Positions 3,382-64,000 of a stretch of 64,000 nucleotides of DNA are shown here, piece by piece; positions within the stretch are counted from its first letter, which is position 1, and every line of letters begins with the position of its first letter. Below the pieces are notes generated by a model that saw only the letters and a program-made list of their open reading frames with translations, did no database searches and was not told the DNA's origin. The position numbers and the translations under genes were made by a program. The stretch lies in NCBI GenBank assembly GCA_050084515.1, contig CM114271.1:45756001-45820000 (forward strand), given 5' to 3'. Origin of the DNA: Blasia pusilla. Taxonomy: Eukaryota.

Positions 3382-3479
3382 AAAAGGAGAACCTCTTAGA
3401 GAGTTCATCTTGCATCGATCACGTCTGCTACAGCTAGAAGGTCCGCCCTTACTCGAAGAAAGGCTCTCCACACGACAAA

Positions 3480-3497
3480 TGGTGCTTCCACTGAGAG
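3480..3497 (+). promoter_or_regulatory. Primer binding site, tRNA-Thr(AGU)-like
   Basis: TGGTGCTTCCACTGAGAG 2 nt after the LTR CA; two mismatches to the recalled plant tRNA-Thr(AGU) complement TGGTGCTTTCATTGAGAG; variant copy at 8131-8148. Confidence 0.7.
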
Positions 3498-3607
3498 ATC
3501 TTTGATGCGATAGACTGTTTTTGCAAGTTGGAGTCTTATCAAGATGACTACTTCTGATAGTACTTCAAAGGTCCGCCCTTCCTCGAAGAAAGGTTCTCGA
3601 CACGACA

Positions 3608-4297: not shown

Positions 4298-4355
4298 CAT
4301 TCTTTAAGTGAGTCATTTAGAGTCTAGTCATAAAAACCACCTATTTCTTTTAGTG
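4298..4355 (-). mobile_element. CACTA transposon end fragment
   Basis: Minus strand starts CACTAAAAGAAA at 4355; TGACT motifs resemble 9310-9460. Confidence 0.55.
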
Positions 4356-5575: not shown

Positions 5576-5629
5576 TCTTATTTGTAATGATTTAGCATTC
5601 AATCTAGGAAGGCATACTTGCCACCAATA

Positions 5630-7250: not shown

Positions 7251-9309
7251 TGTAGCCACCCTTTGTTAGTAATAGTTAAGTTAGAATCTATGACATGAAG
7301 CGCATAAGTGGAAAAGAATCAACCAAAAAGAGAAAAAGATAAGATACATGATATAAAGATGAGAGGGGCCATAGGTTGGTGAAAAGGAAGACAAGGATGA
7401 GGTTGAGGAAAATGAGGTTGGGACATTAGACTCTAAAGGAGATCCTCTCATGCTATGAGAGTAGGACACGTGGCATAAAGATAGGTAGAGCTAATTTGTC
7501 TTCATTGTACCTATCTCTAAGTATATAAAGGAAGAGGAGAGGCCTTGAGGGATATTCTACCTTTGAGCAACTCTAGAGTGGTTCCAGTTAGAGGATGTTT
7601 GTCAAGTATGGATAGGGGTGGACCACGAGTTTTGCCGGATTTTCTTTTCCTTAACCCGTAGCACATCAAGATTCTCTTTGTAGATAGGTACTGGTTCACT
7701 TGCTATCTAGTTTATCACTTTGGGGACTAGTCATGAACCAAGTCATGCAATCTCGAACTCTGATGATCCTTCCTATAGTCACGTACGGAAGGACATGGGA
7801 TTACACTTTGTATGTCCTTATATAGCTATCCATGGACATCAATAGGCCTGCTCAAGTAGGGTTTAACACTAGTTGTGTGATTTTCTTTGTGTACAAACGT
7901 AAAGTAGTTTACAAGGACTTCATAGTTAGGAATTTCGGGGTTCCATGTTATGAAGAAGTGATCGCCTCGGCACTATCTTTCGTGATTCCTATCGTGAGAG
8001 AATGGATGGTTTACATAATAATTCTGTATTGAAAAAGGAGAAAGTCTTATAGAGTTCGACTTGCATCAACCACGTACGCTGCAACTAGAAGGTCCGTCCT
8101 TACTCGAAGAAAGACTCTTGACACGACAAATGGCACTTCCACTGAGAGATCTTTGAGGCGGTAGATTGTGTTTGCAAGTTGGAGCCTTGTCAATATGACT
8201 ACTTTTGGGAGAACTTCATCAATGGGAACTCAGGGAGCTGAGGAACTTCTCCGAACTTTGACAACATTGTTGAGCCAGCAAGGAGGAGTCCACATAGGAG
8301 AGCAAAAATCAACAAGGCCTCTCCAAGCGATTGTAAAGAAGTTGGGGTGATTTGATGGGAGGAACATCACCAAGTATGTTCGAGAGTATGTGTGTGAGAA
8401 GGAGGTAAACCCTGTACCCGAAGCTGATATGGTGTCAAGTTTTGAGTTAGATGTAATACCAGAGATCCGTAGTCAAGTAAAGAAGTTGAGAGCATAAAAT
8501 CCAACCTCATGGGAGGAGTATGAGCAGTTGCTGAAAGGAGAATTCTTTGATGATGATGTGGATCAGGAGACTAAGAGGAGTTTTCTAGAATGGATAGAGC
8601 AACGTCCAGGGAAGGGAATGACTCCAAATGAATTGTTGCGTGAGTTTGAGAAGCGGTTTTTTAACTTTCTTCTTCCAAAAGGGCAACTCTAGACTTGAGG
8701 AAAATAGAGTTATTCCTTGAGGCGGCTGATGAGAATTTGGAGGATAAGCTTTTCATAATGTTGGCGGACAAGAACAAAGAAGGAGGTGTTAGCACTAATT
8801 GGAAGAAAGTGGAAGAAGCTGTTGCTATTCTCACAAAGCAAAGTCGAAGTAGAGGTAGAACCACACTATTCAAGTTGGAGGTATCAATTTCAAATCCATT
8901 GCCTAAGCCCATGTCTGCAAAGCTTGAAGATTGTGCCATTGATGAGTTGGTGAAAGGTTTGAGAGAGTTGAGAGTAGAAATGGGTGAGCTTAAACTTGAT
9001 AGGAATCCTAGTGTTGGTGCTCCTTCGACAAATAGGAACTTTGTGAGAAGATGTATATGGTGTGATAGTGTTGAGCATCAACGTCGAGAATGTGAAGAGT
9101 TTTTAGAAGCTCTTAGGAATGGAATAGTAAACTTCAAAGATGGGAAGATTCATTCAACGCAGACTCGTATGCCGTTGAATACCAACTTTGGTAGAGGAGG
9201 AATGAAAGGCTTAGTGAGAAGTCAAGTAGGAGTTTCCACTACGACATTAGATTCTGATAACTTTGTAGTAAAAATAGAAGCACCTATTGTATTTGTAGCT
9301 AAAAGTGAA
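7251..9309 (+). mobile_element. Second L1-family copy: LTR (ends 8128), PBS 8131-8148, degenerate gag from 8222
   Basis: LTR homologous to 2290-3477; gag MGTQGAEELL..FDGRNITKY; zinc knuckle CIWCDSVEHQRREC; truncated at a CACTA end; left boundary uncertain. Confidence 0.8.
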
Positions 9310-9470
9310 CACTAGTAGAAAAGGGGCTAGTTTAAACCGAGGTGTTAGTGACTCATGTTACTAAGAGTCATTTGAACTACTCCTAGTTACTCTAAAACAC
9401 GTCAATTGACTCATGAATGACTCACATCCTCGAGTCACATTTAATGACTAGGTTAAACTCATAGAGGAGG
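9310..9470 (+). mobile_element. CACTA terminal inverted repeat and subterminal motifs
   Basis: CACTAGTAGAAAA exactly where the gag ORF ends; repeated TGACTC/GAGTCA motifs; partner end not found. Confidence 0.65.
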
Positions 9471-10649: not shown

Positions 10650-12715
10650 TAAGAGTCTCTGAGAGTCTCACTTAAAAATTTTCGTAACCAAGTTGCCTCT
10701 CTGAGAGCTCTAGTTAGAGCCATGTACTCTACTTCAGTAGTGGATAGAGCAACAAATTTTTACTTCTTGCTTCCCCAGCATACAGTTGCGTGTCCTAACA
10801 AGAAACAAAAACCAGAGGTTGATGTTCGATCATCCTGATTACCTCCCCAATCAGCATCAGAGTAACCATACAATGGTTCTAGGTTGTTTTTCCTAGTGCA
10901 CACAAGTCCTAAGTTTGTTGTCCCTTTTAGATATCTAAAAATCCTTTTTAGAGCACCCCAATGGGCTCAACGTGGTTCAACCATATATCTAGAAATCATA
11001 CTCACAGCAAAAGAAATGCTAGGCTAGTACAAACCATTGCCCATATGAGACTACCTACTGCACGTTTATAAGGTATCTTTCTCATGAAGCTTCTTTCTTC
11101 TTCATTCCTCGGGGAATCCTTTCTTAATAGCTTCTTCCCTGATTCTACTAGTGTTTCTACAGGTTTGCGGTCTGACATTTTAAACTTTTCAAGTACATTG
11201 TTGACATACCTACTTTGAGATAGTCTAATCCATCCTTCCTTTTTGTTCCTAGTTACTTCCATTTGAAGGAAATGATGGATTTCTCCTAGATCTGTCATTC
11301 TAAACTCCTTTTTCATTGAGTCTTTGACAAATATTAGCAATGGTGTACAATTACTAATCAGTACAGCGTCATCTACGTATAGGGCAAATTCAACAAAATA
11401 TTCCTGATCATTCAGGATGTAAAAATTTGTGTCATTATCACATCTCCGAAATCCTATTTTGATCAGAAATCTATCCATCATTTGATACCACAATCTTGAT
11501 GACTATTTAAGTCCATAAATGGACTTGTGCAGCCTACAAACTTGATCTTGGCAAGTAGGATTTGATAGCCCCTCTGGCATCTCCATGTATACTTCCTCCT
11601 CAAGTATACCATTCAAAAATGTTGTCTTTACATCCATCTTATGTACTTCAAGATCAAACTATGTTGCCAGAGCAAGCATAACTCGGATTGAAGTTTTTTT
11701 TACTACAGATGAGAATGGCTCAGTGTAGTCCACACCATAAACTTGTGAGTAGCCTTTTGCTACCAATCTTGCTTTGTACCTTTCAATGCTCCCATGTGCC
11801 TTGTACTTTATTTTGAAAACCCATTTACATCCCACGGCCTTTCTACCTGGTGGGAGTGAAGTGAATGACCAAGTGTTATTCAACCTCATGGATTCAAGCT
11901 CTTATTCCATTGCATCCTTCCAAAGAACTGCTTGCTGCCCAGAGAGAGCTTCTTCATAGGTCTCGGGTTCTTCAATATTGTTATGCTTCTCTTGTTGACT
12001 CATTAACGCTTGAGTCAACTTCTCCTTATCTGGAGTCCTTGCGTGTGATTCTTGATGTGCTGCATCATATTTCTGCACTTGCCTTGAAACCCTTTCAGAT
12101 CTTCTTGGTCTAGCACTCGCTTGTGTTGGAGTTTTGTTGTTGGACTCTATTTGAACAATCTGTGGCTCCTTTTGAACTTGTTCTCATGCAACATCAAGAA
12201 AACCACTCTCTGTTGGAATCTCACTAGCACTCTTACTAGTACTTGGAGTGCTCATACGTGATGTTAGTACATCTTTTCCTTCAGTGGTAGTCAATGTTGG
12301 AGTTGGTAAGGCTCCCACTAAACTCGTTCCCCAAGACTCCAGGAACTCAAACAAGGAATGGTCCTCCTCTTTACGCAAACCAACAAATGCCACTTTTCCC
12401 TCTTGGAATTTTACATCCCTAGAAGTGGTGATGGTTTTGTCAAATTTCTTTTGCAACATGTATCCTTTTCTTTGCTCTTCATAACCAAGAAGAATACATT
12501 TAGTTTTATGATTTATGATTTTACATCTAGTTTTCTCCTCTGAGAAGAAGGAATTAGTGCAAAAGTCAGACACCAAAAATTCTATTGTGACTAAGATCTG
12601 GAGGCTCTCTGTACCAAACCTCATATGGTGTCTTAACACCCTCCAGAGCCTTTTTTGGTGATCTGTTCTGCAAATAGTTTGCTGTCACTATTGCTTCACC
12701 CCAAAAAGTTTTCGA
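10650..12715 (-). mobile_element. Degenerate Ty1/copia pol (integrase end, RT, RNase H)
   Basis: [60 protein letters not shown] order; stops and frameshifts. Confidence 0.92.
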
Positions 12716-16449: not shown

Positions 16450-18000
16450 GTTGTCGTGTTTTTTTATTGCTGTTGGGATATAATTCCTTACCCTAAGTTT
16501 AAATACCATTATTTTATTTGTGTTCTTTGGGTTGGGATGCCCCTTTGGGGGCATTTTTGGTATGAGTATGTTTCCTGATTTTTTGACGCCTAGTTGAAAA
16601 ACCTAGTTCGGGGAGGGTAGAAAAAGAGGTATGGAGAAAACCTTCTTCCAACCATTGGATGGTGATGAAAATTTGTAAAAACCTTTGCATTAAATATCTT
16701 CAAAACTTCAACGGTTTAGATCTGCCATTTAGCCCCCCATACTCATACCAAAAATAGAAAACCTTGTTTAGGGTTTACAATTTTTAATTTGGTCTATGAG
16801 TGGTCATTTGAAGTCTTTTATTTTCCCTTGTTTTTTGTTTATGGAAAAGCTTTATGATTTTTGGACCCCTAGTTGAGGGTGGAGGGGAGAAAAAGGGGGA
16901 TCAAGAGGACTTTCAATAGCATTCTTCAAAGTCGTTGTGTCATTTTGATGTTAACATGGAGTTATCCTTTCTTTCCACCATCTTATGGTGATGAAAAGTG
17001 GCCGGATCCTTTCCAAAAAAATCTCTCCAAAACGTCAATGATTCAAATCTGCTATTTAGCCCCCCATACTCATACAAAAAATGAAAGACCTTGTTTAGGA
17101 GTTACGATTATTAATTCCATGTGTATGTAGTCATTTGAAGTTTTTCCTTTTCCCTTCTGTTCCTGTCATTGGATTTTCCCTTTGGGAAATGTTTCTTGAT
17201 TTTTTGACCGGTTCTCGAGGGTGGAGGGGAGAAAATGGGAGGTCAAGATGGACGAAGAGGACTTACAAAAGGATTGTTCCAAGTCATTGTGTCATTTTCA
17301 TGTTAACATGAAGGTATCTTTTCTTCCCACCATTGGATGGTGATGAAAATTGGCACAAGCCTTTTCAATAAATCTCTACATAAATTAAACAATCAGATCT
17401 GCCATACATACTCATACAAAAAATGAAGAGCCTTGTTAAGGCTTTATCATTTTTAATTCCATTTGTGAATGGTTATTTGAAGTTTTTTCTTTTCCCTTGC
17501 ATTCTTGTCATTGGAGTGCCACTCTTGGAAAATTTTCTTGATTCGAGGACCCCTTGTTTAGGGTGGAGGGGAGAAAATGGGGGTCAAAATGGTTGAGGAG
17601 GGCTATCAACATAATTGTTCCTAGTCCTTGTCTCATTTTGATGTTAACATGGACATCTTTTTTCTTCCAACCATTGGATAGTAATGCAAATTGGCGAGAG
17701 CCTTTCCATTAAATCTCTCTTGACCTTCAACGCTCAGATCTGCCATTTAGCCCCCCATGCTCATACCAAAATTGGAAGACCTTATTTAGTGGTTATTTTT
17801 CTAATTCCATCCGTGAGCGGTCATTTGTAGTTTTTTCTTTTCCCTTGTGTTTGTGTCATCAAAGTGCACCTATGGGAAAAAAATTTGGTTTTGGTTCCCT
17901 GGTTGAGGGTGGAGGGGAGAAAAAGGGGGGCTCAAGAAGGATGAGAAGGACTTTCAATTGCATTCTTCCCAATCGTTGTGTCATTCTCAAGTTTACATGG
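16450..18000. repeat. Diverged tandem array R1, period ~342-346 bp
   Basis: GAGGGTGGAGGGGAGAAAA anchors at ~16875, 17217, 17559, 17905; partial unit at ~16605. Confidence 0.85.
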
Positions 18001-21000
18001 AATATTTTTTCTATTGGGAGCATGACGTAGAAGTGCATGCTCCGACAAGGTTTCATGATTTATGGGCCACCAGAAGAAGAGGTCGAAGAAAGAAGAAGAG
18101 GAGTGTTATAGGTGTAAAGTTCTAAGTCTCCATTGAATTTTACTGGTCTTATCCACGCACCCAAACCTCCCACCGTTGGATGGACATGGAACACGAGGGA
18201 TTTTTAATTCCTTCTAAGGGTGGTCATTTGGAGATTTTCTATGATGCGGAAGTGCATGTTCCAACAAGGTTTCATGATTTATGGGCTAGCGGAAGAAGAG
18301 TGGAGCCAAAAAATGTCGAAGAAAGAGGAAGATGAATGATGTAGGAGTAAGGTTCCATATCTCCATTGAATTTTACTTGTCTTATTCATGCACACCTCCC
18401 ACCGTTGGATGGTCATGAAACATGATGGATGTGGGGTTGGCAATGCCCTCTTGCACATGGACGGTGTAGATCTTGAATATGATTCTCCATACTCAGTTAA
18501 AAATTCCAAAATCTCATGTAGGGTTTTTGATTTTTAATTCCTTCTATGGGTGGTCATTTGGAGATTTTCTATCACACGGAAGTGCATTTTCCAACAAGGT
18601 TTCATGATTTATGGGCCAGGGGAAGAAGAGGGGGGCCAAGAAATGTCGAAGAAGAGGAACATGAGTGATGTAAGAGTAAAGGTTCAAGTCTCCTTTGAAT
18701 TTTACTCATCTTACCCATGTACATGGAGCTCCCACCGTTGGATGGACGTGAAACACAAGGGATGTGGCTTGGCAATGCCCTCTTGCCCTTGGACGGTGTG
18801 GATCTTGGATATCATTCTCCATACTCACTTAAAAATTTGGGAACCTCACTTAGGGTTTTTCATTTTTAATTCCTTGTATGGGTGGTTATTGAGATTTTGT
18901 ATGACGCAGAAGTGCATATTCCAACAAAGTTTCATGATTTATCCGCCAGCAGAAGAAGATTGGGGCCAAATGTCGAAGAAAGAGGAAAATGAATGATGTA
19001 GGAATGAGGTTCCAAGTCTTCCTTGAATTTTACTCCTCTTATTCACGCACCTAGAGTTCCCACCTTTGGATGGACATGAAACACAAGGGATGTGGGGTTG
19101 GCAATGCCCTCTTGCCTTTGGACGGTGTGGACCTTGAATATGATTCTCCATACTCAGTTAAAAATTTTGAAGCCTCATTTTGGGTTTTTATTTTTAATTC
19201 CTTCTATGGGAATTTTTAAAAAAAAACCCGAAATGTCATTTGGAGATTTTCTTTTTATGTTGGGAGCACGACATGGAAGTGCATATTCCAAAAAATTTCA
19301 TGATTTATGGGCCTGCAAAAGAAGAGGGTGGCCATAAAATGTCGAAGAAAGAGGAAGATGAAAAAATGTAGGAGTAAAGGTCCAAGTCTCCTTTCAAATT
19401 TTACTCGTCTTACCCACGTACCCGGAGCTCCCACCCTTGGATGCACGTGAAATAAGAGGGATGTGGGTTTGCCAATGCCCTCTTGCCCTTGGAGGGTGTG
19501 GAGCTTGAATATCATTCTTCGTACTCAATTAAAAATTTTGAAACCTCACTTAGGGTTTTTTATTTTTAATTCCTTCTATGGGTGGTCATTTGGAGATTTT
19601 GTATGATGCGGAAGTGTATGTTCCATCAAGGTTTCAAGATTTATGGGCTAGCAGAAGAAGAGGGAGTCCAAAAAATGTCGAAGAAAGAGGAAGATGAATG
19701 ATGTAGGAGTAAAGGTCCAAGTCTCCTTTGAATTTCACTGGTCTTATCCATGTATCCGGAGCTCCCATCCTTGGATGGACGTGAAACAAGAGGGATATGG
19801 GTTTGCCAATGCCCTATTGCCCTTGGAGGGTATGGAGCTTGAACATCATTCTCCATACTTAGTTTGGAAACCTCACTTAGGGTTTTTTTATTTTTAATTC
19901 CTTCTTATTGAAGATTGAGTTAAAGTCAACGCTCATGAGGCACCTGAACTGCAACATTTGCTACTCACACAAAGTAGGGAAGCTTAATCGTGGTTAGTCA
20001 GTTAAGCGCGATTATCTTCACTAGGGTTAGTTAATCACAATTAGTTTAACTCGAGACTATGGTTAAGATTAGGATTAGGGTTGCTTGTACATACCCTATA
20101 TAATTGAGAAGGGGGCCAGCCTCCATTCATTCTCTCATTGCAAATGTGGTTCTCCATGATGGTGTGTGAGTGCGAGAACCGTTTACCATCAGATATGCTT
20201 CTTTAGTAGTTTTCCACATGGTACTAGAGCGATAGAAGAACATCACTTGAAATTCTTGGTGTTTGAGGAGATAAGAGATGCAAGAGAAGGCACAATTTCA
20301 GTTTGGGAGAAGGAAATTTTGTTCACAACTCAGTGGGTGCAAATTTCAAACGGAGCTTTGACGGTGATAAAACTCTAGAGACATTTTTTAAGGCTTTCCT
20401 GGTCGATTTAGCCATCTCGGTCCGCAACGGCTGCAATGATGCCAATATCTAGTTATAATAATCTTGTAGATCTCGTCGAGAGCTTTCCAACGCATCCAAA
20501 ATTGCTCAATTCTGACATTCTGAGCTCCTGCAGTAGCAATTTCAGTGTAGGAAAGTGCAAGTAGTTAAGAAAAGTTGTGCAATTTGCTCTCTACAGGCCA
20601 ATTTCGACTAGTTCTTTCATACAGTTGATCAATTTTGGAAAATTTCAGGTCGATTTCTTGTAGGAATGATCTATGCTTCAATTGGAGCAATAAAGAGCTT
20701 GAAATTATATTTTTTTTGAGTGAAATCGTTCGTCATGGAATATTCCTAAGTAGCAATCACATGTGAGAAGCTAGATAAGCAAAATTATAATGTCTGGAAG
20801 TTTCGCATAAAACAATCTCTCATGGGTCAAGAACTATGGGAGCTTGTCACAGGTGATGAGGCCAAGCCAGAAGGTGACTCAACAGACTTGAATGTTTGCG
20901 CTTGGAACAAACGCACAAGGCAAGTAATCCACTACATTTCAATAACGATCAATTCGCCAATGATAGGTCGCATTCAAGATGTTGATATTCCGAAGGAGGC

Positions 21001-24000: not shown

Positions 24001-26652
24001 CTTAAGTTACAAGCAGAATTTGATATGAAGAACTTGCGAGAACTCGAGTACTTCCTTGGTATTGAGTTTATCAAGGTTGGAGAGAGCATGTGGTTACTAC
24101 AACGACAATATGCTCTTCATATGCTTTCAAAATATGGTATGACGGCCTGTAAGCCAATCTCTACACCGTTACATCAGAGTGTGAAGCTAAGAGTGGATGA
24201 AAGAGAGTTGCTTGCAGATTCTAATATGTACAAGCGCATGGTTGGAAGTTTGATCTATCTAACTTTAACTAGATCAGATTTGATTTATATTGTTGGCCTA
24301 GTGAGCCAACTTATGCAAGCACCTCAAAACCTCACCTTGACGCTGTGAGGAGGATTATACGATTTGTGAAATTCTCTATTCAATTCGGGCTTCAATTTGA
24401 ACTTTCTCCGAGTTTTCAATTAGAGGGATTCACAGATGCTGATTGATTAGGAAGCGTGTCTGATCGACACTCTACATCTGGTTATACATTTACTTTGGGA
24501 AGCGCAACTATACGTTGGGCTTCAAAGAAGCAACCTATAGTTGCTTTATCTTCAACAGAGGCTGAGTACAGAAGAGCAACCAATGCAATATGTGAGGCGG
24601 TGTGGCTTCATGGATTACTTGTTAAGATTGGTGTTTGTAACTTAGGACCTAGTGTAACATATGCATACAATATTAGTAGCATCAAGCTTGCTAATAACCC
24701 AGTGTTTCATGCTCGTACAAAATATGTTGAGGTGCACTATCATTTTATTAGAGAGAAAGTGCTTGCAGGAGAAATTGATCTAGTGTATATAAATACAGAT
24801 CGGCAAATTGCTGACATCTTTACAAAGGCATTGTCTAGAGATAAGTTTGAGATGTTTAGAAATAATTTAGGCGTTAGAGATATCGATGTGAGTTTGAGGG
24901 GAAGTATTGAAGATTGAGTTACAATCAAGCTCATGAGACACCTGAATTGCTATATTTGGTACTCACACGAAGTAGGGTAGCTTAATCTTGGTTAGTCAGT
25001 TAAGCAAGATTATTTTAACTAGGATTAGTTAATCATAGTTAGTCTAGCTCGAGACTATGGTTAAGGTTAGGGTTAGGGTTGCTTGTATATACCCTATATA
25101 ATTGAGAAGGGGATCAGCCTCCATTCATTCTCTCATTGCAAATTTCGTTCTCCATGGTGGTGTGTGAGTGTGAGAACCGTTTTCCACCACTTATGCTTCT
25201 TTATCAGTGTTCCATACTTCTATGATTGGTCATTTGGAGATTTTGTATGACGCAAAAGTGCATGTTCCAACAAGGTTTCATGATTTATAGGCCAGTGGAA
25301 GAAGAGGGGAGCCAAAAAATATCGAAGAAAGAGGAAGATGAATGATGTAGGAGTAAAGGTCCAAGTCTCCTTTCAATTTTACTTGTATTACCCACGCACC
25401 CGAAGCTCTCACCGTTGGATGGACGTGAAACACAAGGGATGTAGGTTTGGCAATGTCCTCTTGCTCTTGGACGGTGTGGATCTTGGATATCATTCTCTAT
25501 ACTCAGTTAAAAATTTGGAAACCTCACTTAGGGTTTTTGATTCTTAATTCCTTCTATGGGTAGTCATTTGGATATTTTGTATGATGCGGAAGTGCATGTT
25601 CCAACAAGGTTTCATAATTTATGGATCAGCGGAAGAAGAGGGGGGCCAAAAAATGTCGAAGAAAGAGGAAAATGAATGATGTAGGAATGAGGTTCCAATT
25701 CTCCATTGAATTTTACTCATCTTATTCACGCACCTAGAGCTCCCACCGTTGGATGGAAGTGAAACACAAGGGATGTGGGGTTGGCAATGCCCTCTTGCCC
25801 TTGGATGGTGTGGATCTGGGATATCATTCTCCATATTAAGTTAAAAATTCTGAAGCCTCATTTTGGATTTTTTATTTTTAATTCCTTCTATGGGTTGTCA
25901 TTTGGAGATTTTCTTTTTCTGTTGGGAGCATGAGATGGAAGCGCATGTTCCAAAACGTTTTCATGATTTTATGGGCTAGCAAAAGAAGAGGATGGCCAAA
26001 AAATGTCAAAGAAAGAGGATGATGAATGATGTAGGAATAAGGTTCCAAGTTTCTATTGAATTTTACTCGTCTTATCCACACACTCAGAGCTCCCACAGTT
26101 GGATGGACGTGAAACACATGAGATGTGGGGTTGGCAATTCCCTCTTGCCCTTGGACAGTGTGGACCTTGGATATCATTCTCCATCCTCCGTTTAAAATTC
26201 TGAAACCTCACTTACAGTTTTTGAGTTTTAATTCCTTCCATGTGTGGTGATTTGGAGATTTTCTATCACACAGAAGTCCATGTTCCAACAAGGTTTCATG
26301 ATTTATGGGCCAGCGGAAGAAGAGGGGGGCCAAAAAATGTCATAGAAAGAGGAATATGAATGATATAGGAGTAAGATTCCAAGTCTTCTTTGAATTTTAA
26401 TCATCTTACCCACGCATCCAAAGCTCCCACCATTGGATGGACGTGAAATAGGCGGGATGTGGGTTTGGCAATGCCCTCTTACCATTGGACAGTGTGGATC
26501 TTGGATATCATTCTCCATACTCAGTTAAAAATTCTGAAACCTCATTTAGGGTTTTTGATTTTGAATTCCTTCTATGGGTGGTCATTTGGAGATTTTATTT
26601 TTTCTGTTGGGAGCGTGATGCAGAAGTGCATGTGCCGACAAGGTTTCATGGG
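18000..26652. repeat. Diverged tandem array R2, period ~330-366 bp, ~10 units, split by the copia at 19906-25216
   Basis: TCATGATTTATGGGC anchors at ~18053, 18272, 18602, 18932, 19298, 19634, 25278, 25612, 25961, 26296. Confidence 0.9.
19906..25216 (+). mobile_element. Full-length decayed Ty1/copia element; LTRs 19906-20218 and 24905-25216
   Basis: TSD CTTCT at 19901-19905 and 25217-25221; iMet-type PBS TGGTACTAGAGC 20219-20230; PPT GAGGGGAAG; gag-PR(DSSAS)-INT-RT-RH from ~20735 to 24917 with many stops. Confidence 0.95.
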
Positions 26653-35993: not shown

Positions 35994-38900
35994 ATGAGCC
36001 GAGGACGTGCGGGGGAAGTCCTGTTCGGTGTGGTCGTGTGGTGTTTTAGTTTTCTGCAGACAACGAACGCTCAAATAGGTACTTCCATCTTCAAGTTCGT
36101 GGCTGAATTGCCTAGCAGTTCTGGCAACACTCGAGGATATTCGAATCAGGTCAAGCAAATTCTTCTTTAGCTAATGGTGAAGGGAACCTAGGACCTAAAT
36201 AGGATTGTGCGTGCAGCTTCTTTCGGGTTGGTTTCAAGCATAATTGTGGTAACTACGGAGGCCCATTCGATCTTTGAGCGCAGGTTTCATCAGTATCGAT
36301 TGCGGCACGGGTTCCAACTACACTGACAATCGCAAGATTTTTTGGGTAAACGATGAAAGATATACGGTGACGGGGCAGAATGGCATAGTAGATATCTCGG
36401 GAGCAAATCTCAACACAAATCAAGTGAATGATATTGGCCCGCAGTTGCAGACGATCAGATACTTCCCTGGGACCCAGAGCAAGTCGTGTTACATGATTCC
36501 TGAAGTCGAAGCGAACCAGTTGTACCTTGTTCGCTTGATGTTCCTCGCTGGTGACTTGACTTCCAAGCTGGGGAAATCGATCACCTTCGGCGTGACACTT
36601 GGAAATTACCGGTGGGAGGATGTTGTAATCGATGATCCTCTCACTCCTGTGATCATGGAAGCTGTACTTACAACGATGATGAGTCCGTGGCCTATCTGCT
36701 TCCTGCGCGACGTAGGGACTCCGTTCATCTCGTCGATCGAAACCGAATTCTCCCCAGGTTTTATTACCAAACAAGTCTTCTGCAGTTGCACGTCCTCACG
36801 GGCGTTTATAGGATTGACTGTGGCTTGAAATCGGGCAGCGCAAACCTGAGGTCGGTACACCTCACCTATCCTTGCTCCACTGGCGGCTATGCATTGACAG
36901 TCAGACCTCCTTCCTATAATGTCGTGAAATATGCGCAATGTGCAATGCTTCCCAATAACTTTTTGTGGTCTTGAACTACTCTTGAAGCTCAAATGAGGTC
37001 TGTACGTCGAACGCTTCTTGGCACTCGAGAGATTGTTAGCTCTATTTCATCACGTCATGGTCATGGACTAAATTTCAAGAGTATTCAAAGTGGACGCCTA
37101 CAGACGCGGTGACCTAATTCTTCATTATTTCGGTCTCGATGGGAAGAAATTACTCTAATCGCATTCATAGTCGCACGAGTCATTCCCTTTCCTTTCTCAC
37201 TCCCATGAAATTTTCCATGAACTTCAGTAATTAAAACTGCCTCGTCCTCCTTTTAAGTCTACGAATCCGACCAAATCCAGGCAACCCTGATCCTATCCTA
37301 CAATGCGTGCATCAAAAGTTGTTACCTTCGTAAAACAGAGCGAGACTTGCAATGTTGAAGGACTTGTAAGGAAGAGCGAATGTTTCACTTGTCCTTCAAC
37401 TTCAGGTCTTGCATTGATTGCCATGTACTAAACACAGTGAAGGGGAGGCCATACAACTCCAACTTGTCCGGTCTGACAATCCAGGCTACTGACGATCGTA
37501 CGCATGTTTTTAATGCCTCCAGATACCCCTCAGACACCTTCGATCGCTTCTGGACGCCCGATCCCGCCAACTTCAGCTTCCCTAAACGCAGAGCTTCTAT
37601 CTTCGGGATTACTATTCGGTGAGTCTCCCCAACGAGGCGTTACGATCTGCTTGGGTCGCTCCGTCGCTTAATTCGAGCATCTCCTTCTCTTGGCCCATCC
37701 CTCCGTTGCAGAAGGCGCACTACGTCAGCTTCTTCTTCGTGGAGCTTCAACAAGTGAAGCCCACTGACATTCGGGAGGTGGACATATATTTGAGCGGCGT
37801 ATACCAAGAAACGGCGACGATTAACTCGTCGGTGTTTTCCACGTTTGACATAACCAGACCCGTTTACACGTCGTTGAACGTCACCCTTTTCGGAATCCGA
37901 GATCCACTTTGCCGGTGATGCTGAACGCGGTCGAGTCGTATATGTTTGATTCATACAATTACTCCTTCGTTACACATCCGGACGATGGTACGTGCTTCTT
38001 AATTTCCTGACGGTCTTTTAACTTATATTTGCCCTTCCATTTCGCAATTTCCTTTTCTCTTGCATTTTCAGCTAGTAAAACCGCTTTTCTAGTGAGCCAA
38101 TTGCTCGAAAATGATTAAAAATGATACGCAAAAATTTCAAATATGGGAGGTAATTTAATTAGCACAAGTGTAGGCTTATATAATCTATATACATAGACTA
38201 ATGGTTGGTTTTCGGAAGTGTCGTATGGAGCTCACACTATCGCTGAAAAAATACTTTGACCCGTTTCATTGTGAAAAGAATACTATTTTATTTTTCGTTA
38301 TTCCCCAAAGATTTACTCTGATTCTCCTCGACTTACACAATGATAATACACGTTTAAAAAAGCAATTAAACTTGTAATCCCAAGACGGCTAAACCTTAGC
38401 CTTTGCTGCATGGACAAGCAGCAGCCGCCATTGCTTCATTCATAACGAGCGCCAACTTAACAACTTGGAGCGGTGATCCTTGCTTGCCTGTTCCATACTC
38501 TTGGTTAAAGTGCAGTTCTCCACAAGTTTCAAACATTTCTAGGGTTTTGCAAATGTAAGTTCTACTTCCAATGTTTTTCCTTTCTTAATCGGATTTGACT
38601 TGTTTGATTTATATGTGCAATAGAAGTGAGAAGCTTTGATCAACATATTACTTATTATGTGGTTATGAATACTTGCAGAAACTTATTGAATCAGAATATC
38701 AGTGGCTTTATTACAAAAGATATTGCAAAATTAATCGAGTTGACGGATCTGTAAGAGCTAGAATCCTTCGAACTTCATTTGGTTGTGGATATCTTAAACC
38801 AATTTACTTTGAATGTTCTACTTCTGGAGTTTTTTGGGAAGGAAGATCTCCTTAGAAACATTGTGACGGATGTCAAGGTTGCGTCCGCACTAAAGTCAAG

Positions 38901-41900
38901 TTGGAGATGCATGAGCAGGGCATTGGACAACAATAATATAACTGGTACCATCCCCGACTTGAGTGCTCTCATCAATCTTCAAACAATGTAAGGGAGTGAA
39001 TTGGATCCCATGCAGACTGTTGTGGTTTACAATGCACTCAATTATTTTTGGAAGTGGCTTTTCCCATCCTAAAGTAGCCCTTATTTTGTTCACACAATAT
39101 ATTTATGTTTAAATTTTTTACTACTTTTGGCGCATTGAGATGTGCAGACGATTTCAAAACAACCAATTACAAGGATCTATTCCGGATTCATTGGCTCTGC
39201 TCCCAAATCTCACATTGTTGTACATAGAAACTTCTCATGGTATTAACAAAGTTATGACGCATATTAGAGCATTCAATTGAAGAGATATTTTGTTTTGAAT
39301 GGCTTTCAATGAGAAGGATTGCAAAGTGTTCACATAATTGGGGATGGGTAAGTTTCTTATAAGAAGTTGCCTATAATCACAAGGCACCAATTATGATATA
39401 GAGAATATATTCAAGAATCATAGAAAGTAGTTTGAACTGCAATTTCAAGTTGTAGTTGTCGTGATCATCTTGAGAAGTTGTTATTATCCCAATTAGAAGA
39501 TGGGTACTAATGTGACCAAAGTTATTGTAAATAGATTTGGTCTTGACTATACAATGGATGAGTAGTATGTAACTATGGTGTTTTGTGCATATTGTCAGAA
39601 CTTTGGACCATAATCTCTTGGAGGAGGGCTACCACCAGGTCTAGCGAAGAAAATTGATATGGGCTCATTGACTTTTTAAGTAGGCATTCCTCTCCTTCTT
39701 GGTTCTAAGGTGTAACTCAATGATATATGTTGTATATAAGTGAGCGCATGATCAAGTTTCAAACAATTGATTGATCAAGAACATTATTGATCTACAAATT
39801 TAAAATAGCATTGCTTATTTTGGAATTCCTACAGGGCGAGTGATAATCCCTACCTATGTTTTGGAGGAAATCCATGCTTACGATCAACAAATAGTTCATC
39901 AACCTCTTTCCCAAGAACTCCTTCCAAGAGCTCAAGCTCTAACATTGGGCCCAAAGTGGGTGCGGCAATAGGTGCCGTACTTGGGCTACTACTTCTAGTG
40001 ATGATTTTGGTTTGTGTATATAGAAAGAGAAAGAACTCCAAGCTTCCAGGTATGAAAATACATTCTCAATCCAATCATGGTTGTCTACCTATCTTAGTTG
40101 CTTTCACGTACTTGGTTCTTTGAGTCCCCTCTTTCTTGTATTCTTGATAGATTTCCCTCCTGCTTTTTGTTGAGGTTTTATTCCTATATATACTTATATA
40201 AATTGCTGTAATATATACTCTAATCGTGAATTCGTTGAATATTTTTATATTTTTCTTCTTTCTCTTCTATTTGTGACTATTGAATGGATTCTTTTTGTTA
40301 GTCCAGGTGAATCGAATGTGAATGTTGTCGCCCATGGGGTTTCTTCTTTTTCAAACCAACCTAGAGATCCAAACCAACCAATCCCTTTCTCACAAATCGA
40401 GGTACTTCAAGCCACAAACAACTTTTCGAGAAAAATTGGCAAAGGTGGCTATGGAGATGTTTACTACGGACAATTTCCTGATGGTCAAGAGGTGGCCGTG
40501 AAAGTGAACAAAGGAAATTCTCACCAAGGAGCAAAGGAGTTTTTGAATGAGGTAAATCACATCATCATCAATTGATGCCCATGTCCAAGTAGGATCAAGC
40601 GTCACAAAGATTTTAACTCATTTCCATGTTTAATTGCAAGTACTTTCAATCATCGAGCTTTAAATCTCATTTAGTATTTGGTGGTGGATGTTGTTAGGTA
40701 ACGCTCTAGTCAAGATTTCACCACCAAAATTTGGTGTCTTTTGTGGGTTATTGCAAGGAAGAAAACGAGCGTGTTTTGATATATGCATTTATGTCTCAAG
40801 GGACATTGCAAGAGCACCTCTATGGTAAGCATTCCCTTCATCTCACTCCAATAACCCCTTCATCCCATCCAATTGATCTCATACCCAACTCAAATCATCC
40901 TTCAACTCATGAGTAGATATAGACTTTTTCCTTTGACCAATTGTTCAAAGGTTTTGTTATTTCCTAACCATCTAGTAATATGCTTGATTGAAAGGATATC
41001 TTTTCTATTGAGGCATTTAGAAATAAAACTCTTGGAATAGTGGGAATAACTTGAGTGTGTTTAAAAGACTCCTATGTTTCCACTAAGTTGTTTCTCCCTT
41101 TGAAATAGGTGAAGGAGGGGCTCGTGTACAACAACCACTAGATTGGCGAACAAGACTAGATATTGTCCTCAATGCTGCTCGAGGTGATGATGATACTCGG
41201 ATTTAGCTTGCATCTAAACTCATGCATATGCAGGCCAATGCTATGAAGATGAAAGATTCCTTTCATCTTCATAACATTGGCCATGTAGAGCATTTATTCC
41301 TTTCAAATGAAAGATGTGTGATTCTCTTCACCCCAAAATAATCCTTCATGCGATTGATTTTTTGTTCTACTCTAACTTTAAGTTTTTCATGTTTGTGGCT
41401 TCTATACTTTCCCAGGAATTGAGTACCTACATCATTCTTGCTCTCCCCCTGTCATTCAACGGGACATAAAAGCAAGCAATATTTTATTGACCGATAGGCT
41501 CACCGCCAAAATATCAGATTTTGGCATTTCAAAAAGCATAATTCAAAATAATCAATTTGAGATCATGACGGGAATGAAGGGTTCCTTCGGCTATCTTGAC
41601 CCAGAGTAAGTCTCTTCTCCACTTAGACCACACATACTTTCATGAATTCAAAAAAAATTCACAAACTCAATAAATATCTTTGTATTTAAGATAGAACTTG
41701 TTGTGGTCATTGGTCAGGTACTTCACGGAGAATCGATTGACCTTAAAGAGCGATATCTATAGCTTTGGCGTTGTTTTGCTTGAAGTTATCACAGGGAGAA
41801 AATACAACACAACTCAATTTCCAAATGGCGTGACATCCACTCTCATAGATTGGGTAAGTGCAATTGTATGAATATAATATATGCTTTAATCATGGGATAT

Positions 41901-44003: not shown

Positions 44004-45290
44004 TCACAGTGGTTTGTTTAGGATACTTCGCACTTCTTTGAGGGACAAAATTGGTTGGTAGATTCCTACTCCTACCTTCGACTCTCTTAAAACTACAAGC
44101 AACACATAGTACATGTGCTTACAAGGGTACCTTCTCCCATTTGTCGCTCTTTGGACAAAGTCATTACAGGAACATGTGGGAAAGCAATAGATATGTACCA
44201 CATACACCCCTGACACACTTGAATTAAAAATTTTGTTCGTGACCCAATACATCCTTCCTATTCCAGTGCCACTATGAAACTCTTTTGTGGCGATGATTTC
44301 CATGTTTGCCTCTTGAGCTTATGCGATTCACTTTGCTCTCTCCATTGTTCGTCTACACATTTTATTTCTCTTCACCTCATTTCTAGACTCGAACAAAAAT
44401 AGTGGATTGAGATCATCCACTTTCTACACGTACATGTTGACATCAATCTTGGGTTGAATCCGAAATGCGAAGGTCCCTCTAATGCGAACATGCTCTGAAC
44501 TCCCTCCCTCTACGAGTCTGAAATCGGCACTTGTAAGATTGTCCACTTCCTCTTGAATGCAAGTGGTATCTCCAGCAATGGGCCAAATTTTTGGGGTATT
44601 CCCTGCAGCTCCTATGGCAGCCGAATAAGACTTTCAAAAAGCCCATGATTCATTTGGGAAGAAGAAGTACTTCAATTGATCCCCGATTCTGGTAAAATAA
44701 TCAAAAGTTTTCAGCCCCCAGAAACCTGGGAGTGGTCGTCCTGTCCTTGTATAGTTCTTATTCAAGAAAGTGCCACATGCTCTCGTAATGCCATCCGATC
44801 TTGCCTTGCAAGTTAGGCCACGTCCAAGATTTCTTCAAGAAATATGCCATTTCTTGAGGTTGCAATCAACCTCAAGATCGGAATCCCGTACTTTTGAACT
44901 ACCCCCAAGATTATATGTTGGGAAGTTCCAACAACAGAGGGATTTTAAAATAAAACATTCATTGATTGTGCAGAAGGTACTTCAACTCGAATTTGGGAGC
45001 AGTCTGATGTCTCTGAATACCTGGGCGGGGTAATTTCATCATCCAAATCAATCACCCGATTCTTTTCTCAATTTCGACGCTTGACTTTCTTGAAATCAAT
45101 ATACTTATCAGGTCTCCAAGAGTCTCGTACAGACTGCTCTACCATCATCTGTATGGGACATCTTGGAACACGCCCACGAATGTCCCCACCAATGTGGACG
45201 TCTTTCTCGAGAGGAGTTACAGCTATGCATCAATTGAAAGCTTCCACATATAATTTCTCATCCCCAGATCTCACAACGGCTCTAACATAG
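44004..45290 (-). pseudogene. Degenerate SWIM zinc-finger ORF, probably transposon-derived
   Basis: YVVHIYCFPTCSCNDF..PCKHMYYVLL (CxC..CxH) in 44004-44303; upstream part frame-disrupted and extent approximate. Confidence 0.6.
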
Positions 45291-45304
45291 AGCTCATAAA
45301 TCAA

Positions 45305-45391
45305 AGGGCCCTTTTACTTAATACTAATAAAACTCTCTCTAACACTTAATGAGAGAGGAGTTTACATAGTGAGTGATTTTACTATACAACA
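45305..45391 (-). mobile_element. Truncated start of a third L1-family LTR
   Basis: Minus strand TGTTGTATAGTAAAAT..CTCATTAAGTGTTAGA.AGAGTTTTATTAGTATTA matches 2232-2304. Confidence 0.75.
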
Positions 45392-45739
45392 ACTATTCCG
45401 CACGCACCTCTTCCGCATGAAAAATTGGCAAATAAACAACAAAATCAAGCGGATCTTGCTCCGGTCAGCACTCCCATGAGCCGTTGAATGGGGAACACGG
45501 TCCCTAACTTGCAACAACAAGTGAACAGTGAACTCCTTATTGAAACTCTCTCGCTCACTCATTCTCTCTTTGTATATCAATTACTTCTCTCAACATCTCA
45601 CACCAAACTCTCCATGGTGTGCACTCTCTCTCATGTCAAACCAAACCCACTCTCCTAATGAGAGGCTTGGATTGTACACACAAGGCAAGGAGGACCATAG
45701 CTCCGCCGCCTCATGCCAAGAGGTTCAACATAGAGAGAG

Positions 45740-46720
45740 TGTCGCGACCCTCATGACCAAACGAGTGCCAAAGCGGAACATTGGAACATTAGCGGGCTCA
45801 CGCTAAGATGGTTTGCGCGTTGGAGTGGTCTTGAACAAGAGACAAGAGACGAGACACAAGTGAGGCTTCGCGTTTCAGATGTTATGGTCTCGACTAAGAA
45901 ACCTGGACCAAACGCGGAACAAGACTTGAAAGGAGTTGAGTCTAGGAAGTGGTTTGCCAAAGGAAGAATCCATATTTGGAACGCCACTAGCGTTTGAGAT
46001 TTTCCGACTGTATTTATGGCCATAACTTTTAGCGCCAAGATGCGTTTGGATCGAAAAAGGGTGCGTTAGAAGACTTATGGAAAGATAGTTCAAGCGCACT
46101 AAAGATCTCTACAAACGCATGAGCAGCAGCTGAGAAACAACCCAGAAACGACTATAAGTAGAGTCGGGTTGAGGGCCACAACAAAGGGCCCGACCCTCCT
46201 TTTCCAAAAGGGGGTTATTGGAGAATCCCAGAAGTACTAGTAAGGGGGAAGGTCTCCGAGAGTGCGTGGAACTCGAACCCCACTTTGGGCGCCACGGGGC
46301 GGCTCAAGGGCATGGAACAGATCGAGAGTTTGGGGTTGAGTTGGAAAACCTGAACCAAGTCTACGGAGGTGATTTTAGACATCCCTCTTGGATTTCACCC
46401 CGCGACTCAATTACTTGGGTCTTGGTTTGGAAGTCACACAAGGTCCGTTGAACAATTGGGATCGCTAGGCGCGCAAGTGCCGTTTTAGATTCCTAGACTA
46501 ATCAGGAAGTCTGTTCCAAGTCTTGAAGGACTTGCCATGTTTTGGAAACTAGGAAGTAAGGGAGGTTGAGCTTGCTGAGACGCTGAGTTGAGAACTCGGT
46601 GGGTTGGAATGCTAGTTGACCCAGACCCGACTAACGAGATTGCGTGTTTGGGTGCAGATCGGCGATGAGATCGTGTCCTACTGAACGTACGCTTCCGCAA
46701 CGATAAAGATTGACGTTCAA
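45740..46720. mobile_element. LTR-like insertion into the GA tract of repeat A
   Basis: Begins TGTCGCGAC right after AGAGAGAG; host repeat resumes after the GA run; no coding motif seen. Confidence 0.5.
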
Positions 46721-46721
46721 G

Positions 46722-46723
<2 letters not shown>

Positions 46724-46812
<89 letters not shown>
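46724..46812. repeat. Long (GA)n microsatellite
   Basis: About 90 bp perfect GA run. Confidence 0.98.
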
Positions 46813-46814
<2 letters not shown>

Positions 46815-47176
46815 CTCAAGATCTCTCTCTTGGAGGTATACCCCCTTTCCTCTCCCAAACTCTCTCCTCAATAACCTATGATCGCACGTCACCTCCTTGG
46901 CTCTTGATCTATTGTTGCAGGTTAAGGGACACTTACCAAAGTAGAAAGTCAATGATACTCCAAATAAAAACTTGCCCAAAATAGTAAGTTTCTCTATACG
47001 GCTCCAAATGAGCCGAAACGAAGGGAAAACCTGCTCTCTCATGTTACCCGTGGCCTTAAAAGATCATCCTCGACCTCTTGAGGCTATATTCTAGTATCTC
47101 CGAAGGTGCTCTAGTATATCTCGCCGATCTATCTTAAAAGTCGTGACACCGCACTTTATATTTATATATATATATA

Positions 47177-47250
47177 TTGCAGAGACATGATTCAAACCTA
47201 TGACCTTAAGGTTATGAGCCTTGCAAGCTACTAGACTACTCTACTCCGTA
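47177..47250 (-). tRNA. trnfM-CAU: Decayed plastid-type tRNA-fMet(CAU) copy (organellar insertion, pseudogene)
   Basis: Minus strand CGGAGTAGAGTAGTCTAGTAGCTTGCAAGGCTCATAACCTTAAGGTCATAGGTTTGAATCATGTCTCTGCAA matches recalled plastid trnfM with mostly transition changes; anticodon loop CTCATAA. Confidence 0.8.
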
Positions 47251-48709: not shown

Positions 48710-50379
48710 TGTTAAGAGTATTAGTGTCGCTGCCCATTGCACGGCTTTCCAAAATTCGTATATTTTTGGCTATAGCAGTGGTACTTTATTGGCATCTAGA
48801 GCAACTAGATGTCATCACAGCTTACTTGAATGGTAAGCTTGAGGAGGAGAATATCTACATGACTATTCCAGAAGGGTTGATTGTTCCTGAGGAGTAGAAG
48901 GGGAAGGTACTCCGTCTTTTGCAAACTCTATATGGCTTGAAGCAAGCCGGCCGTGGATGGAATGAGAACTTGGATAGCTCTCTACAACATCTTGGATGGA
49001 AGCGCTCAAATTCAGATCCTTGTTTATACACAATGCAAATGGAAAGCTTCCTTTTGTTGCTTGCAGTTTATGTTGACGACTTGATAATCGGCGGCAAGAA
49101 CTTCAAGCTAATTGTGAAGAGCAAGGAGGAGTTGCAGAACAAGTACAAGATGAAGGATCTTGGAAAACTTTCATACTTTCTTGGTATCACCTTCATCCGT
49201 GACGAGAAAGCTGGCACAATTTATTTGAGTCAGGCAAAGTATATCCGAGAGAAATTGAGAGAATTCGGGTTTGAAAAGATAAAGCCTGCATCTACACCAA
49301 TGGAGGCAGGGCATTCTACGAATCATCTAAACGACTCATTGTTGGATAGTAAAGGTAAAGAGCTTTATCAAAGCGCAATGGGCTCTTTGCTCTACCTCGC
49401 AAACGGTACCAGGTACGATCTCTCATTTGCTTGCCAACATTTTGCGCAGTACATGGCATGTCCGCAACTATCACATTGGCAAGGAGTGAAACGGATTCTT
49501 CGATACCTACAAGGAACAAAGGATCTTGTCCTACTGTATGGAGGACAAAATGCGAGCTTGGAACTTTTAGGGTATAGTGATGCAGATTGGGGTGGATGTA
49601 GGGATAATCGTTGCTCTGTAGGAGGATACGCATTCCTTTTGGCAGGAGCGGCGGTGTCTTGGTCAAGTAAGAAGCAAAAAACTGTTTCCCTTTCTTCTAC
49701 TGAGGCGGAATATGTAGTTGCAAGCAATGCTACCAAGGAAGCTCTTTGGTTACGCAAGGCCTTAGGTGACCTTGGCGTCCTAAAACCAAAAGCTACCCTC
49801 ATCTATGAGGATAATCAATCATGCATTGCAATAGCAAAGAATCTTGCACATCACGGTTGCACGAAGCACTTTGATGTCAAGTACCATTTCCTGAGACAAC
49901 GAGTGGAAGCTAAGGAGATTATTGGCCTACGGAGGAGATGGCAGCTGATATTTTTACCAAGCCTCTTGGGAAGGCAAAGTTTGTTACTTGCAGGAACATG
50001 CTTGGCCTTGTAGAGGGACGTGCCCCTCTTATGGAGGAGGAGTGTTAAGAGTATTAGTGTCGCTGCCCATTGTGAGGGACACGTGTAGTTTGTCACATGT
50101 GTACTTACTATTATAAGAAAGAGGAAGTGGCATAAGGAAGCATGCTCATTCCCCCCTTTGAGTATGACAACTAGGATATAAAAAGGGTTCCCCTATTATA
50201 ATGTAGAAGCTAGTGAGATTCTAAGTCATCTCTAAAGAGGTGCTAGTTTGTGGCTTAGTAAGTCATTAGGAGGAGCTACTACATGACACATGGAGGAGAG
50301 GAACTTGTGAAGACGGTAGAAGGAGCTTCAAGACTTTTGAGTTTGCAACTCTTAATCTTGCATAGTGTCTTTTCTATTA
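48710..50379 (+). mobile_element. Internally deleted Ty1/copia element (29 bp of 5' LTR fused to RT-RNase H; 3' LTR 50043-50379)
   Basis: TGTTAAGAGTATTAGTGTCGCTGCCCATTG identical at 48710 and 50043; TSD AAAAG 48705-48709 and 50380-50384; PPT GGAGGAGGAG; LYGLKQAGRGW, VYVDDL, YSDADWG. Confidence 0.9.
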
Positions 50380-62048: not shown

Positions 62049-64000
62049 TATTGAAGATTGAGTTATAGTCGAGCTTATTGGAATGCTACATTTGGTAGTC
62101 CCACAAAGTAGGAAAGTTTAATCTTGGTTAGTTAGTTAAGCACGATTATATTAACTAGGGTTAGTTAATCACAATTAGTCTAACTTGAGACTGTTAGGAT
62201 TAGGATTATGATTGCTTGTACATACCCTATAAAATTGACAAGGGGACCGGCCTCCACTTATTCTCTCCTCCTAAAATTTTGTTCTCCATGGTGGTGTGTG
62301 AGTGTGAGAGTCGTATCCTACCAATTATGCTTCTTTAGTAATTTTTCTACATGATATTAGAGCGATATGAGAACATCAATTGAAATTCTGGATGTTTGAA
62401 GAGGGAACAAAGGAAAAAGAATGTACAATTCCAATTTAGAAGAAGGAATTTTCATTAAGAGCTCAATGGCAGAAGATTTCAAATAGAGTTTTGACCGTGA
62501 CAAAACTTTGGAGGTACTTTTAGAGTTTTCCCGATCAATTTACGTATCTGGTCCGCATTGGTCAAATCGACGTTGAAGGTTAGTTTTGACCTTCTTGTAG
62601 ATCTTATCAAGAACTTTCCAACGCATCCCAAATCGCTCAACTCTGACATCATGAGCTCTTGCAATAGCAATTTCAATGTAGGAAAGTACAATTAGCGAAG
62701 GAGAGTTGTGCAATTTGTTCTCTATAGGCCAATTCCGACTAGTGCTTCCATACATTTGATCAATTTTGGAAAATTTCAAGTCAATTTCTTATTAGGAGTG
62801 GTCTATGCTACAATTGGAACACTGTAGAACTCGAAATTATATATTTTTGAGTAAAATCATTTTTCATGGAGTATTCCTGAACAAGAATCATAGATGAGAA
62901 GCTAAATAAGCAGAATTATAATGTCTGGAAGTTTCATATGAAACAATTTATCATGGATCAAGAACTTCGAAAGCTTGCTACAAACGATGAGGCCATACCA
63001 AAAGGTGACCTAACAGACTTGAATGTTCGCGTTGGAACAAACGCGTAAGACAAGTAATCCACTCTATTTCAATAACGATCAGTTCGCCAATGATTGGTCA
63101 CATTCAAGATGTTGATACTCTGAAGGAGACCTGGGATGCATTGGAAAAGCTATTCCACATATCTACAAAGGCTAGAAAGCTTAAATTGAACAAAAAATTG
63201 AACGAAGTGAATAAAGGATCGCAAAGCATCAATTACTATGTTTTGAGGATAAAACATGTTGTTGATCAGATGAATAGCATTGGACTGACACTAGAAGATG
63301 ATGATTTGATTTTGTTCACTCTTCAAAGTCTTCAAAAGGATTACAAGTCTTTTGAGACCTCTATCTTTGTGAGAGAAAAATATCCAACCTTGTAAGAGTT
63401 AGTCCTAGTGTTAATTAGTGAAGAGATGCACCTAGTAGGTAGTGTAACTCATCTAATATGCAAGAGGGTGCACTATTTGCAAGTAATGGATCAAATAGAG
63501 GTAGAGATCGTGGTAGAAGCTTTCGTGGTCGTGGTGGATATCAAGTATTTGGAGAAACAGACACTCAATATAACTTCACTCAATCAACTACGACCCAATA
63601 TCAGATATAATCACAATGTGATGATGGTGGAAATTGTTGGGATCGAGGTGAGCAGTAGAGGATCCCTGGATCTTGCAATTACTATGGGATAAAAGATCAC
63701 TATGTAAAGTTTTGCTTCAAGAAGAAGGTAGATATGAGAATAAGAGTCTTACAAGAACAAAACTATGTGGAACAACAACACCAAGGGCAATATTAAAAAC
63801 AATAATATTTACAAACTCAGCATCTATTGGTCATGACTCGTCATATGGAAGCAATGATCAAGAAAGACTCGACAATAGATTGGTAGATCGATTCTGGTGC
63901 ATCAAATCATGTGATCTCATAAGCTAAATGATTCAGGAGTATGGAGCCGGTGAAAGATAATGCAATAGTGCTTATAGAAGATGATACTCAACATCATATC
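62049..64000 (+). mobile_element. Second member of the TA-LTR copia family (LTR 62049-62351, PBS 62352-62363, decayed gag-PR), runs off the window
   Basis: Colinear with 19906-21870; LTR starts TATTGAAGATTGAG and ends CTACA; PBS TGATATTAGAGC. Confidence 0.92.

Follow-up and report, generated by a model that had tools for sequence, protein, structure and literature searches.

Does an LTR retrotransposon choose a single base within another repeat family? The question is raised by a 64,000-nucleotide stretch of the Blasia pusilla genome (contig CM114271.1, positions 45,756,001 to 45,820,000 of the forward strand; hereafter the window, numbered from its first letter), in which termini of one LTR family abut a second repeat, Y, at two places. 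The LTR family keeps the label L1 coined for it in the initial annotation of the window, which does not denote LINE-1, and the two places are referred to as locus A and locus D. The annotation held that L1 had inserted at the same nucleotide twice, in opposite orientations, and saw in this the site-specific targeting of one retrotransposon by another.

The window has a G+C content of 42%, contains no N and is a mosaic of decayed LTR retrotransposons and one host gene. The host gene lies on the + strand from 36253, upstream of locus D, and probably contains introns and encodes a malectin-like receptor kinase; a malectin-like domain is found at 36253-36828 (E = 4.8e-23) and a weak match to the start of a protein kinase domain near 40426, the gene region covering 36253-40575 and beyond. 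Tandem repeat arrays at 16631-19905 and 25217-26650, with periods of about 330-342 bases and 73-85% alike, are flanked by a 311-base unit at 19906-20216 and 24905-25214, and the segment 19906-21871 recurs at 62049-64000 (82%). Fragments of Ty1/copia pol are located at 11002-12684 (− strand) and 48898-50013 (+ strand), where Pfam identified RVT_2 at 11002-11502 and 48898-50013 (E = 3.5e-20 and 3.6e-31, respectively) together with SH3_retrovirus (E = 1.3e-9). The minus-strand fragment interrupts an L1-related region.

The L1 family was defined from its best-preserved member in the window, copy 2 (5608-8128, + strand). The internal region of this copy displays, in order, a reverse transcriptase (RVT_1, 5608-5991, E = 0.0026) and an integrase core (rve, 6114-6590, E = 1.2e-4), both weak matches below the Pfam cut-off, followed by strong matches to SH3_Tf2-1 (6633-7034, E = 1.2e-20) and to a chromodomain (Chromo, 7046-7234, E = 2e-16) that ends just before the LTR. 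A G-rich tract at 7238-7251 precedes the LTR itself (7252-8128). The succession of reverse transcriptase, integrase and C-terminal chromodomain is that of chromoviruses and, on the basis of this domain set and its order ahead of the LTR, L1 is classified as a Ty3/gypsy chromovirus. The LTRs are in keeping with this assignment, as they have TG...CA ends with short inverted termini (TGTCGT...ACGACA at 2232-3478 in locus A, and the same ACGACA end at 8128 in copy 2). A TGG-initiated, primer-binding-like stretch begins at 3480 and 8130, two bases past the LTR end. Across 5608-9315 an internal region leads into the LTR, directly after which the primer-binding-like stretch opens a second internal region whose ORFs reach 9315, an arrangement that looks like two elements with one common LTR, such as a tandem formed through unequal exchange.

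At locus A the L1 element, copy A, is embedded in Y. The left half of this Y copy occupies 2064-2231, and probably extends leftwards to about 2041-2049, while the right half occupies 3608-4764, as defined by homology to copies D, B and C. Between the halves are a 1,247-base 5' LTR on the + strand (2232-3478), recognized by its homology to the LTR of copy 2; the primer-binding-like stretch and the start of the internal region (3479-3567); and the final 40 bases of the 3' LTR (3568-3607), the remainder of which appears to have been lost by internal deletion. Copy A at 2937-3567 is 84% identical to copy 2 at 7589-8218, but the 5' parts of the two LTRs are little alike and yield a weak alignment (2291-2678 with 7261-7580). 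In both copies the LTR end ACGACA is followed by AA and the TGG-initiated stretch. The homology of copy A to 8129-8218 stops at 3567/8218, where copy 2 continues into an ORF, such that the internal region of copy A past its 5' LTR amounts to 89 bases. The LTR-end repeat at 3568-3607, which is identical to 3438-3477 at 37 of 40 positions, follows immediately after 3567 and copy A is therefore an element without its interior. In 93 raw reads the LTR is longer than in copy A by about 23 letters at 2414-2422, which indicates that the window copy carries a small deletion near 2422 relative to most of the family.

The junctions of copy A with Y bear the mark of integration. The seven bases CAACGCT are present at both (2226-2232 and 3606-3612) and, once the T and CA that belong to the LTR are subtracted, they leave a 4-bp target-site duplication, ACGC, read directly at 2228-2231 on the left and at 3608-3611 on the right, where it forms the first bases of the right half of Y. 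With this flanking duplication, and with uninterrupted copies of the target present in the genome (see below), locus A (2232-3607) is a true insertion of L1 into Y.

Uninterrupted Y was observed in raw reads of the public whole-genome run X12, about 1 in 100 of which were placed on 1700-4400 at 80% likeness. The two halves of Y are connected without L1 in 188 reads. In 172 of these the joint is at the site itself, linking 2225 to 3606 (51 reads), 2228 to 3609 (112) or 2227 to 3611 with three other letters (9), while in the other 16, which link 2167, 2175 or 2186 to 3609, the site is joined across a 45-64-base gap that reflects small deletions in Y. Y is therefore a dispersed repeat that is uninterrupted in many of its genomic copies. 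Read depth was ∼1,145 in the bin 2064-2154, 665 in the bin 2155-2245 and ∼665-740 beside the insertion site. At the left end of Y, the alignment of 808 reads breaks off just short of 2071, and beyond that point they continue in sequence like 2041-2070 of the window with many transitions. As 36 reads matched at ≥99% likeness over 2,701 bases, with 1.97 Gb read, the coverage of any single locus would be roughly 2-fold; by a rough estimate the genome is of the order of 1 Gb and, very roughly, Y is present in a few hundred copies.

Occupied Y copies were also detected. In ten raw reads (joint 3418 to 3568) a complete L1 LTR end runs into a copy of the Y-adjoining segment 3568-3607, and one contig of run X2 (3447 to 3586) likewise has a complete LTR end that enters the Y-adjoining LTR-end copy. 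This structure is absent from locus A in the window, so several more occupied Y copies probably exist. The ten reads, in which the shorter side is at most 50 letters and the intervening sequence is flagged as unknown, could represent either new events or copies of one composite.

Locus D contains the second junction between the two repeats. The sequence at 45313-45391 is the reverse complement of 2232-2310 (64/79 identical, 81%; E = 1.4e-15) and thus constitutes an inverted LTR start of L1, 79 bases long and perhaps reaching to about 45309. Its terminus, TGTTGT, is complete and touches Y at 45391/45392. The right half of Y in this copy begins at 45392, the base homologous to 3608, and occupies 45392-45738, with its continuation at 46803-47149. 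As the initial annotation had noted, the flanks from 3608 and from 45392 align free of gaps; this extends over the first 41 bases, of which 32 are identical. Beyond that, 3602-3957 and 45386-45738 are 77.3% identical over 361 columns (E = 1e-68), and 3953-4298 and 46803-47149 are 77.9% identical. At the point homologous to about 3955, copy D contains 1,064 additional bases (45739-46802) compared with copy A, which include an extended dinucleotide microsatellite near 46724-46812. Sequence comparison within the window detected no likeness to L1, or to the Y left half, further left than about 45309. Locus D is thus best described as the stump of an inverted L1 whose other end, with any duplication, is gone. 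The reverse-complemented LTR start noted here earlier is borne out, although what remains is about 79-83 bases of L1 and not an LTR.

Chance is a negligible explanation for the agreement of the two loci. The window contains the 16-mer CTCATTAAGTGTTAGA once at each of them and nowhere else, where shuffled sequences predict 0.09 occurrences, and the Y site at up to four mismatches is found at the same two places, both of which are occupied by an L1 terminus. The ACGACA end at 3607 and the TGTTGT start at 45391 abut Y at the homologous base in opposite orientations, precisely as had been proposed. These are opposite ends of the element and, left of the junctions, loci A and D are alike in the last bases alone (ACGACA and ACAACA, respectively). 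Because different ends of L1 face Y, duplication, conversion or recombination between L1 copies cannot turn one junction into the other, and the earlier argument that the opposite orientation speaks against simple duplication of a single insertion holds. Part of the claim of a double insertion likewise stands: at locus A it is backed by the ACGC duplication and the empty-site reads, while locus D contributes a second terminus at the same base.

The most economical reading of two opposite ends, one complete terminus and a common base is that L1 integrated twice. We favour, at a probability of about 0.6, two independent integrations in which L1, facing opposite ways, entered two diverged copies of Y through the same phosphodiester bonds, in a sequence that acts as a hot spot for the element. 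The target would be ...GGGCA/ACGC/TTCCGC..., cut on either side of ACGC. Copy A would later have lost its interior, which spared the 5' LTR, the adjoining start of the internal region and a 40-base tail of the 3' LTR. At locus D a deletion would have taken the left half of Y and most of L1, of which the first 79-83 bases survived. A favoured target would be usable in either orientation because the integrase complex is two-fold symmetric. Such a hot spot would be strongly enriched over random sites but, since most Y copies are empty and L1 is also found elsewhere, not obligatory; its cause may lie in the integrase, or in chromatin on Y that is read by the chromodomain. The window contains one full duplication (ACGC) and, at locus D, one half-site (ACTA), and inspection of the target revealed no clear palindrome. 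The case for reuse of the site consists of two loci in the window and a few reads, with the duplication readable at locus A alone.

A stronger form of this proposal is that L1 is strictly site-specific, its machinery recognizing the sequence of Y so that a large share of all L1 copies resides at this base; this is the strong reading of the targeting that the initial annotation proposed. The use of the same base in both orientations, the occupation of both Y sites in the window and the further reads in which an LTR end adjoins Y are what such a model predicts. The read data, however, make it unlikely as a rule for the family. Empty sites outnumber complete LTR ends at Y by 188 reads to 10 and, although Y and L1 have similar depths, the majority of Y copies are empty. 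The LTR end has a depth of ∼1,200 (bin 3338-3428) against the ten Y-adjoining reads, from which we estimate, roughly, that a few in 100 at most of L1 LTR ends adjoin Y, not the large share expected of a site-specific family. Consistent with this view, in contigs of run X6, from a related organism, both of the L1 5' starts that have a flank (2/2) continue into sequence unlike Y. Junctions of the locus D type are probably rare, as no strand-changing joint from 2232 to 3608 was present among the 15 joints listed of 85.

It is also conceivable, and we consider it quite unlikely, that the junction at locus D is not the work of integrase, but arose when end joining attached linear L1 DNA to a break at a fragile point in Y, or when two repeats were joined during assembly. 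The L1 sequence at this locus spans just 79-83 bases, with unrelated sequence beyond it and no second junction, and the sequencing runs that best represent 44900-46000 contain 0.15-0.18 of its sampled words and do not confirm the junction. Against this, no base is missing from the L1 terminus, and its contact with Y coincides with the start of the duplication at locus A; such agreement to the base would seldom result from random breakage or mis-joining.

The close relationship of the two loci provides the argument for a single event, in which L1 entered an ancestral Y once, duplication of Y carried the element with it, and inversion or another rearrangement then altered L1 in one of the copies. 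The paralogy of Y-A and Y-D spans about 700 bases; the two copies point the same way, are separated by 42 kb and have in common the junction at which Y gives way to the repeat that follows it, Q; moreover, the L1 starts at the two loci are 81% identical and hence about as diverged as the Y copies (77%). Inversion, however, would require both breakpoints to fall exactly at the LTR termini, and recombination between L1 copies leaves each terminus with its own flank. The LTR remnants of copy A (37/40 identical) also look younger than the split between the two Y copies: had the insertion preceded that split, three or fewer mismatches in 40 would have a probability of 0.01-0.04, given the 77% identity of Y. 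This weakly suggests that the element in copy A arrived after the A and D copies of Y had separated, the comparison being based on few sites in a region, the LTR end, that is conserved within the family (35/40 to copy 2). A single ancestral event is accordingly improbable. Pure coincidence of two random insertions is barely credible since, with a few hundred Y copies in a genome of ∼1 Gb, a second hit on the homologous base has a rough P of ∼1e-6 or less, even though the window was picked for this feature among very many.

Independent integration at a hot spot, the reading preferred here, leaves the nature of Y itself to be considered. The part of Y that bears the site (2064-2231 and 3608 to about 3803) is moderately repeated, and from about 3804 it is followed by a far more abundant repeat (Q, then P and R). 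Depth was 414-740 for 3611-3792 compared with 1,800-5,160 for 3793-4247, making the latter 3 to 10 times commoner. In most reads, and in two other copies in the window (around 16262-14693 and 29003-28408), the abundant repeat is preceded by sequence other than Y. At 3804, 828 reads continue leftward into sequence like that at 4492-4513 of the window and not into Y, as is also the case in the window copies at ∼16131 and ∼28887; the organization of the repeat at 3793-4247 is permuted or tandem.

Y had been regarded as the leader of a second retroelement, with a gag-like ORF fragment about 170 bp downstream of the site. Neither assignment is supported. An LTR pair for Y was not found in the window, and Pfam detected no family in the three ORFs (both strands) around 45362-45806 at locus D or in the ORFs that flank the site on the minus strand at locus A. 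A 116-residue ORF at 1387-1737 (− strand) had no detectable relatives in the Atlas or in a search among longer proteins. On the minus strand, a stretch to the left of Y looked at first sight like a zinc knuckle, and motifs at 4765-5577 looked integrase-like. These stretches matched no Pfam family, and tblastn with the proteins of L1 itself produced no cross-hit. Atlas scores for the coding candidates beside Y were at most 0.77, and a search among longer proteins returned nothing for them.

Several possible links between Y, L1 and other sequences found no support. Y is not detectably related to L1, the best local scores being 22-24 compared with a shuffle maximum of 25, and BLAST at word size 7 gave nothing better than E = 0.008. 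At 3627-3645, 22 bases to the right of the site, Y carries CTCTTCCACACGAAAAAT, of which 17 of 18 bases match the boundary at the L1 LTR end; this likeness does not rise above shuffled controls and may be due to chance. A 12-base word like the L1 start at 4404-4415 (− strand) is a one-mismatch match within a low-complexity stretch. When metagenomes were scanned with a conserved 16-mer of L1, 104 stretches were retrieved, which were compared by BLAST with locus A (2000-4800), locus D (45200-47200) and L1 copy 2 (7240-8300). None was related to these sequences, and the two loci that were matched are chance hits to microsatellite. Scans of viral contigs with the Y pattern and with the L1 LTR-end pattern gave no matches in either case.

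Whether the machinery that integrates L1, or else a Y-bound host factor, truly picks one base in another repeat family in either orientation is doubtful on present data, but it is the possibility that gives the locus its interest. If it were true, L1 would be a sequence-directed 'parasite of a parasite', with a nucleotide precision that is not reported in the passages on nesting of a survey of 12 plant genomes (Jedlicka et al. 2019, Mob DNA, PMC6911290). A base-precise landing site for a chromovirus, if reproducible, would provide a natural system in which to ask what a chromodomain integrase reads in DNA or chromatin, and would also mean that one repeat family serves another as a safe harbour. 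Built on an insertion that is well documented, a second junction that is truncated and a few reads, the case is a good lead and not yet a rule.

Target choice by plant LTR retrotransposons is generally attributed to chromatin and a weak sequence bias. Some LTR elements are targeted by tethering, Ty3 being directed to Pol III start sites, and Ty5 and chromodomain elements to heterochromatin. L1 resembles these tethered elements in possessing an integrase-linked chromodomain, the kind of module to which the targeting of chromoviruses to silent chromatin is ascribed, and Y, as an abundant repeat, is likely to be packaged in such chromatin. Tethering, however, confers a regional preference and not the base precision seen at the junctions of L1 with Y. 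A preference of the integrase for short sequences is described for Drosophila errantiviruses of the gypsy, ZAM and Idefix subgroups, in the parts of the review that deal with their targets (Nefedova and Kim 2017, Viruses, PMC5408687): integrase favours TATA, CGCG and ATAT, and the short palindromic target, which is usable in either orientation, becomes the 4-bp duplication. L1 is likewise an LTR element of the Ty3/gypsy group that generates a 4-bp duplication, although errantiviruses belong to another lineage and are characterized there by AGT...AnT ends and an env gene, in contrast to the TG...CA ends and chromodomain of L1 (PMC5408687). In addition, the ACGC at the L1 site is not a palindrome, and a word of four bases would not by itself account for the use of one base in Y.

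Reuse of a single site has a parallel in the double insertions that seed tandem repeats, which are reported to occur at the same site of the same DNA copy and to produce tandem dimers (McGurk and Barbash 2018, Genome Res, PMC5932611). The insertions discussed here would be similar in that one site was used again, but differ in that two different copies of Y were involved. The closest comparison is with the survey of 12 plant genomes, whose account of nesting describes non-random insertion of LTR retrotransposons, mostly Ty3/gypsy, into one another, with preferred regions, nested pairs in both orientations and, in a minority of cases, 4-bp duplications with a GC-rich centre (PMC6911290). In that account nested pairs at similar positions were always at least 50 bp apart, sequence was judged not to be the main driver, and no sequence-specific site was described (PMC6911290). 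L1 in Y conforms to this pattern as a Ty3/gypsy element nested in another repeat, but departs from the surveyed pairs in that its two junctions fall on the same base, as opposed to positions at least 50 bp apart.
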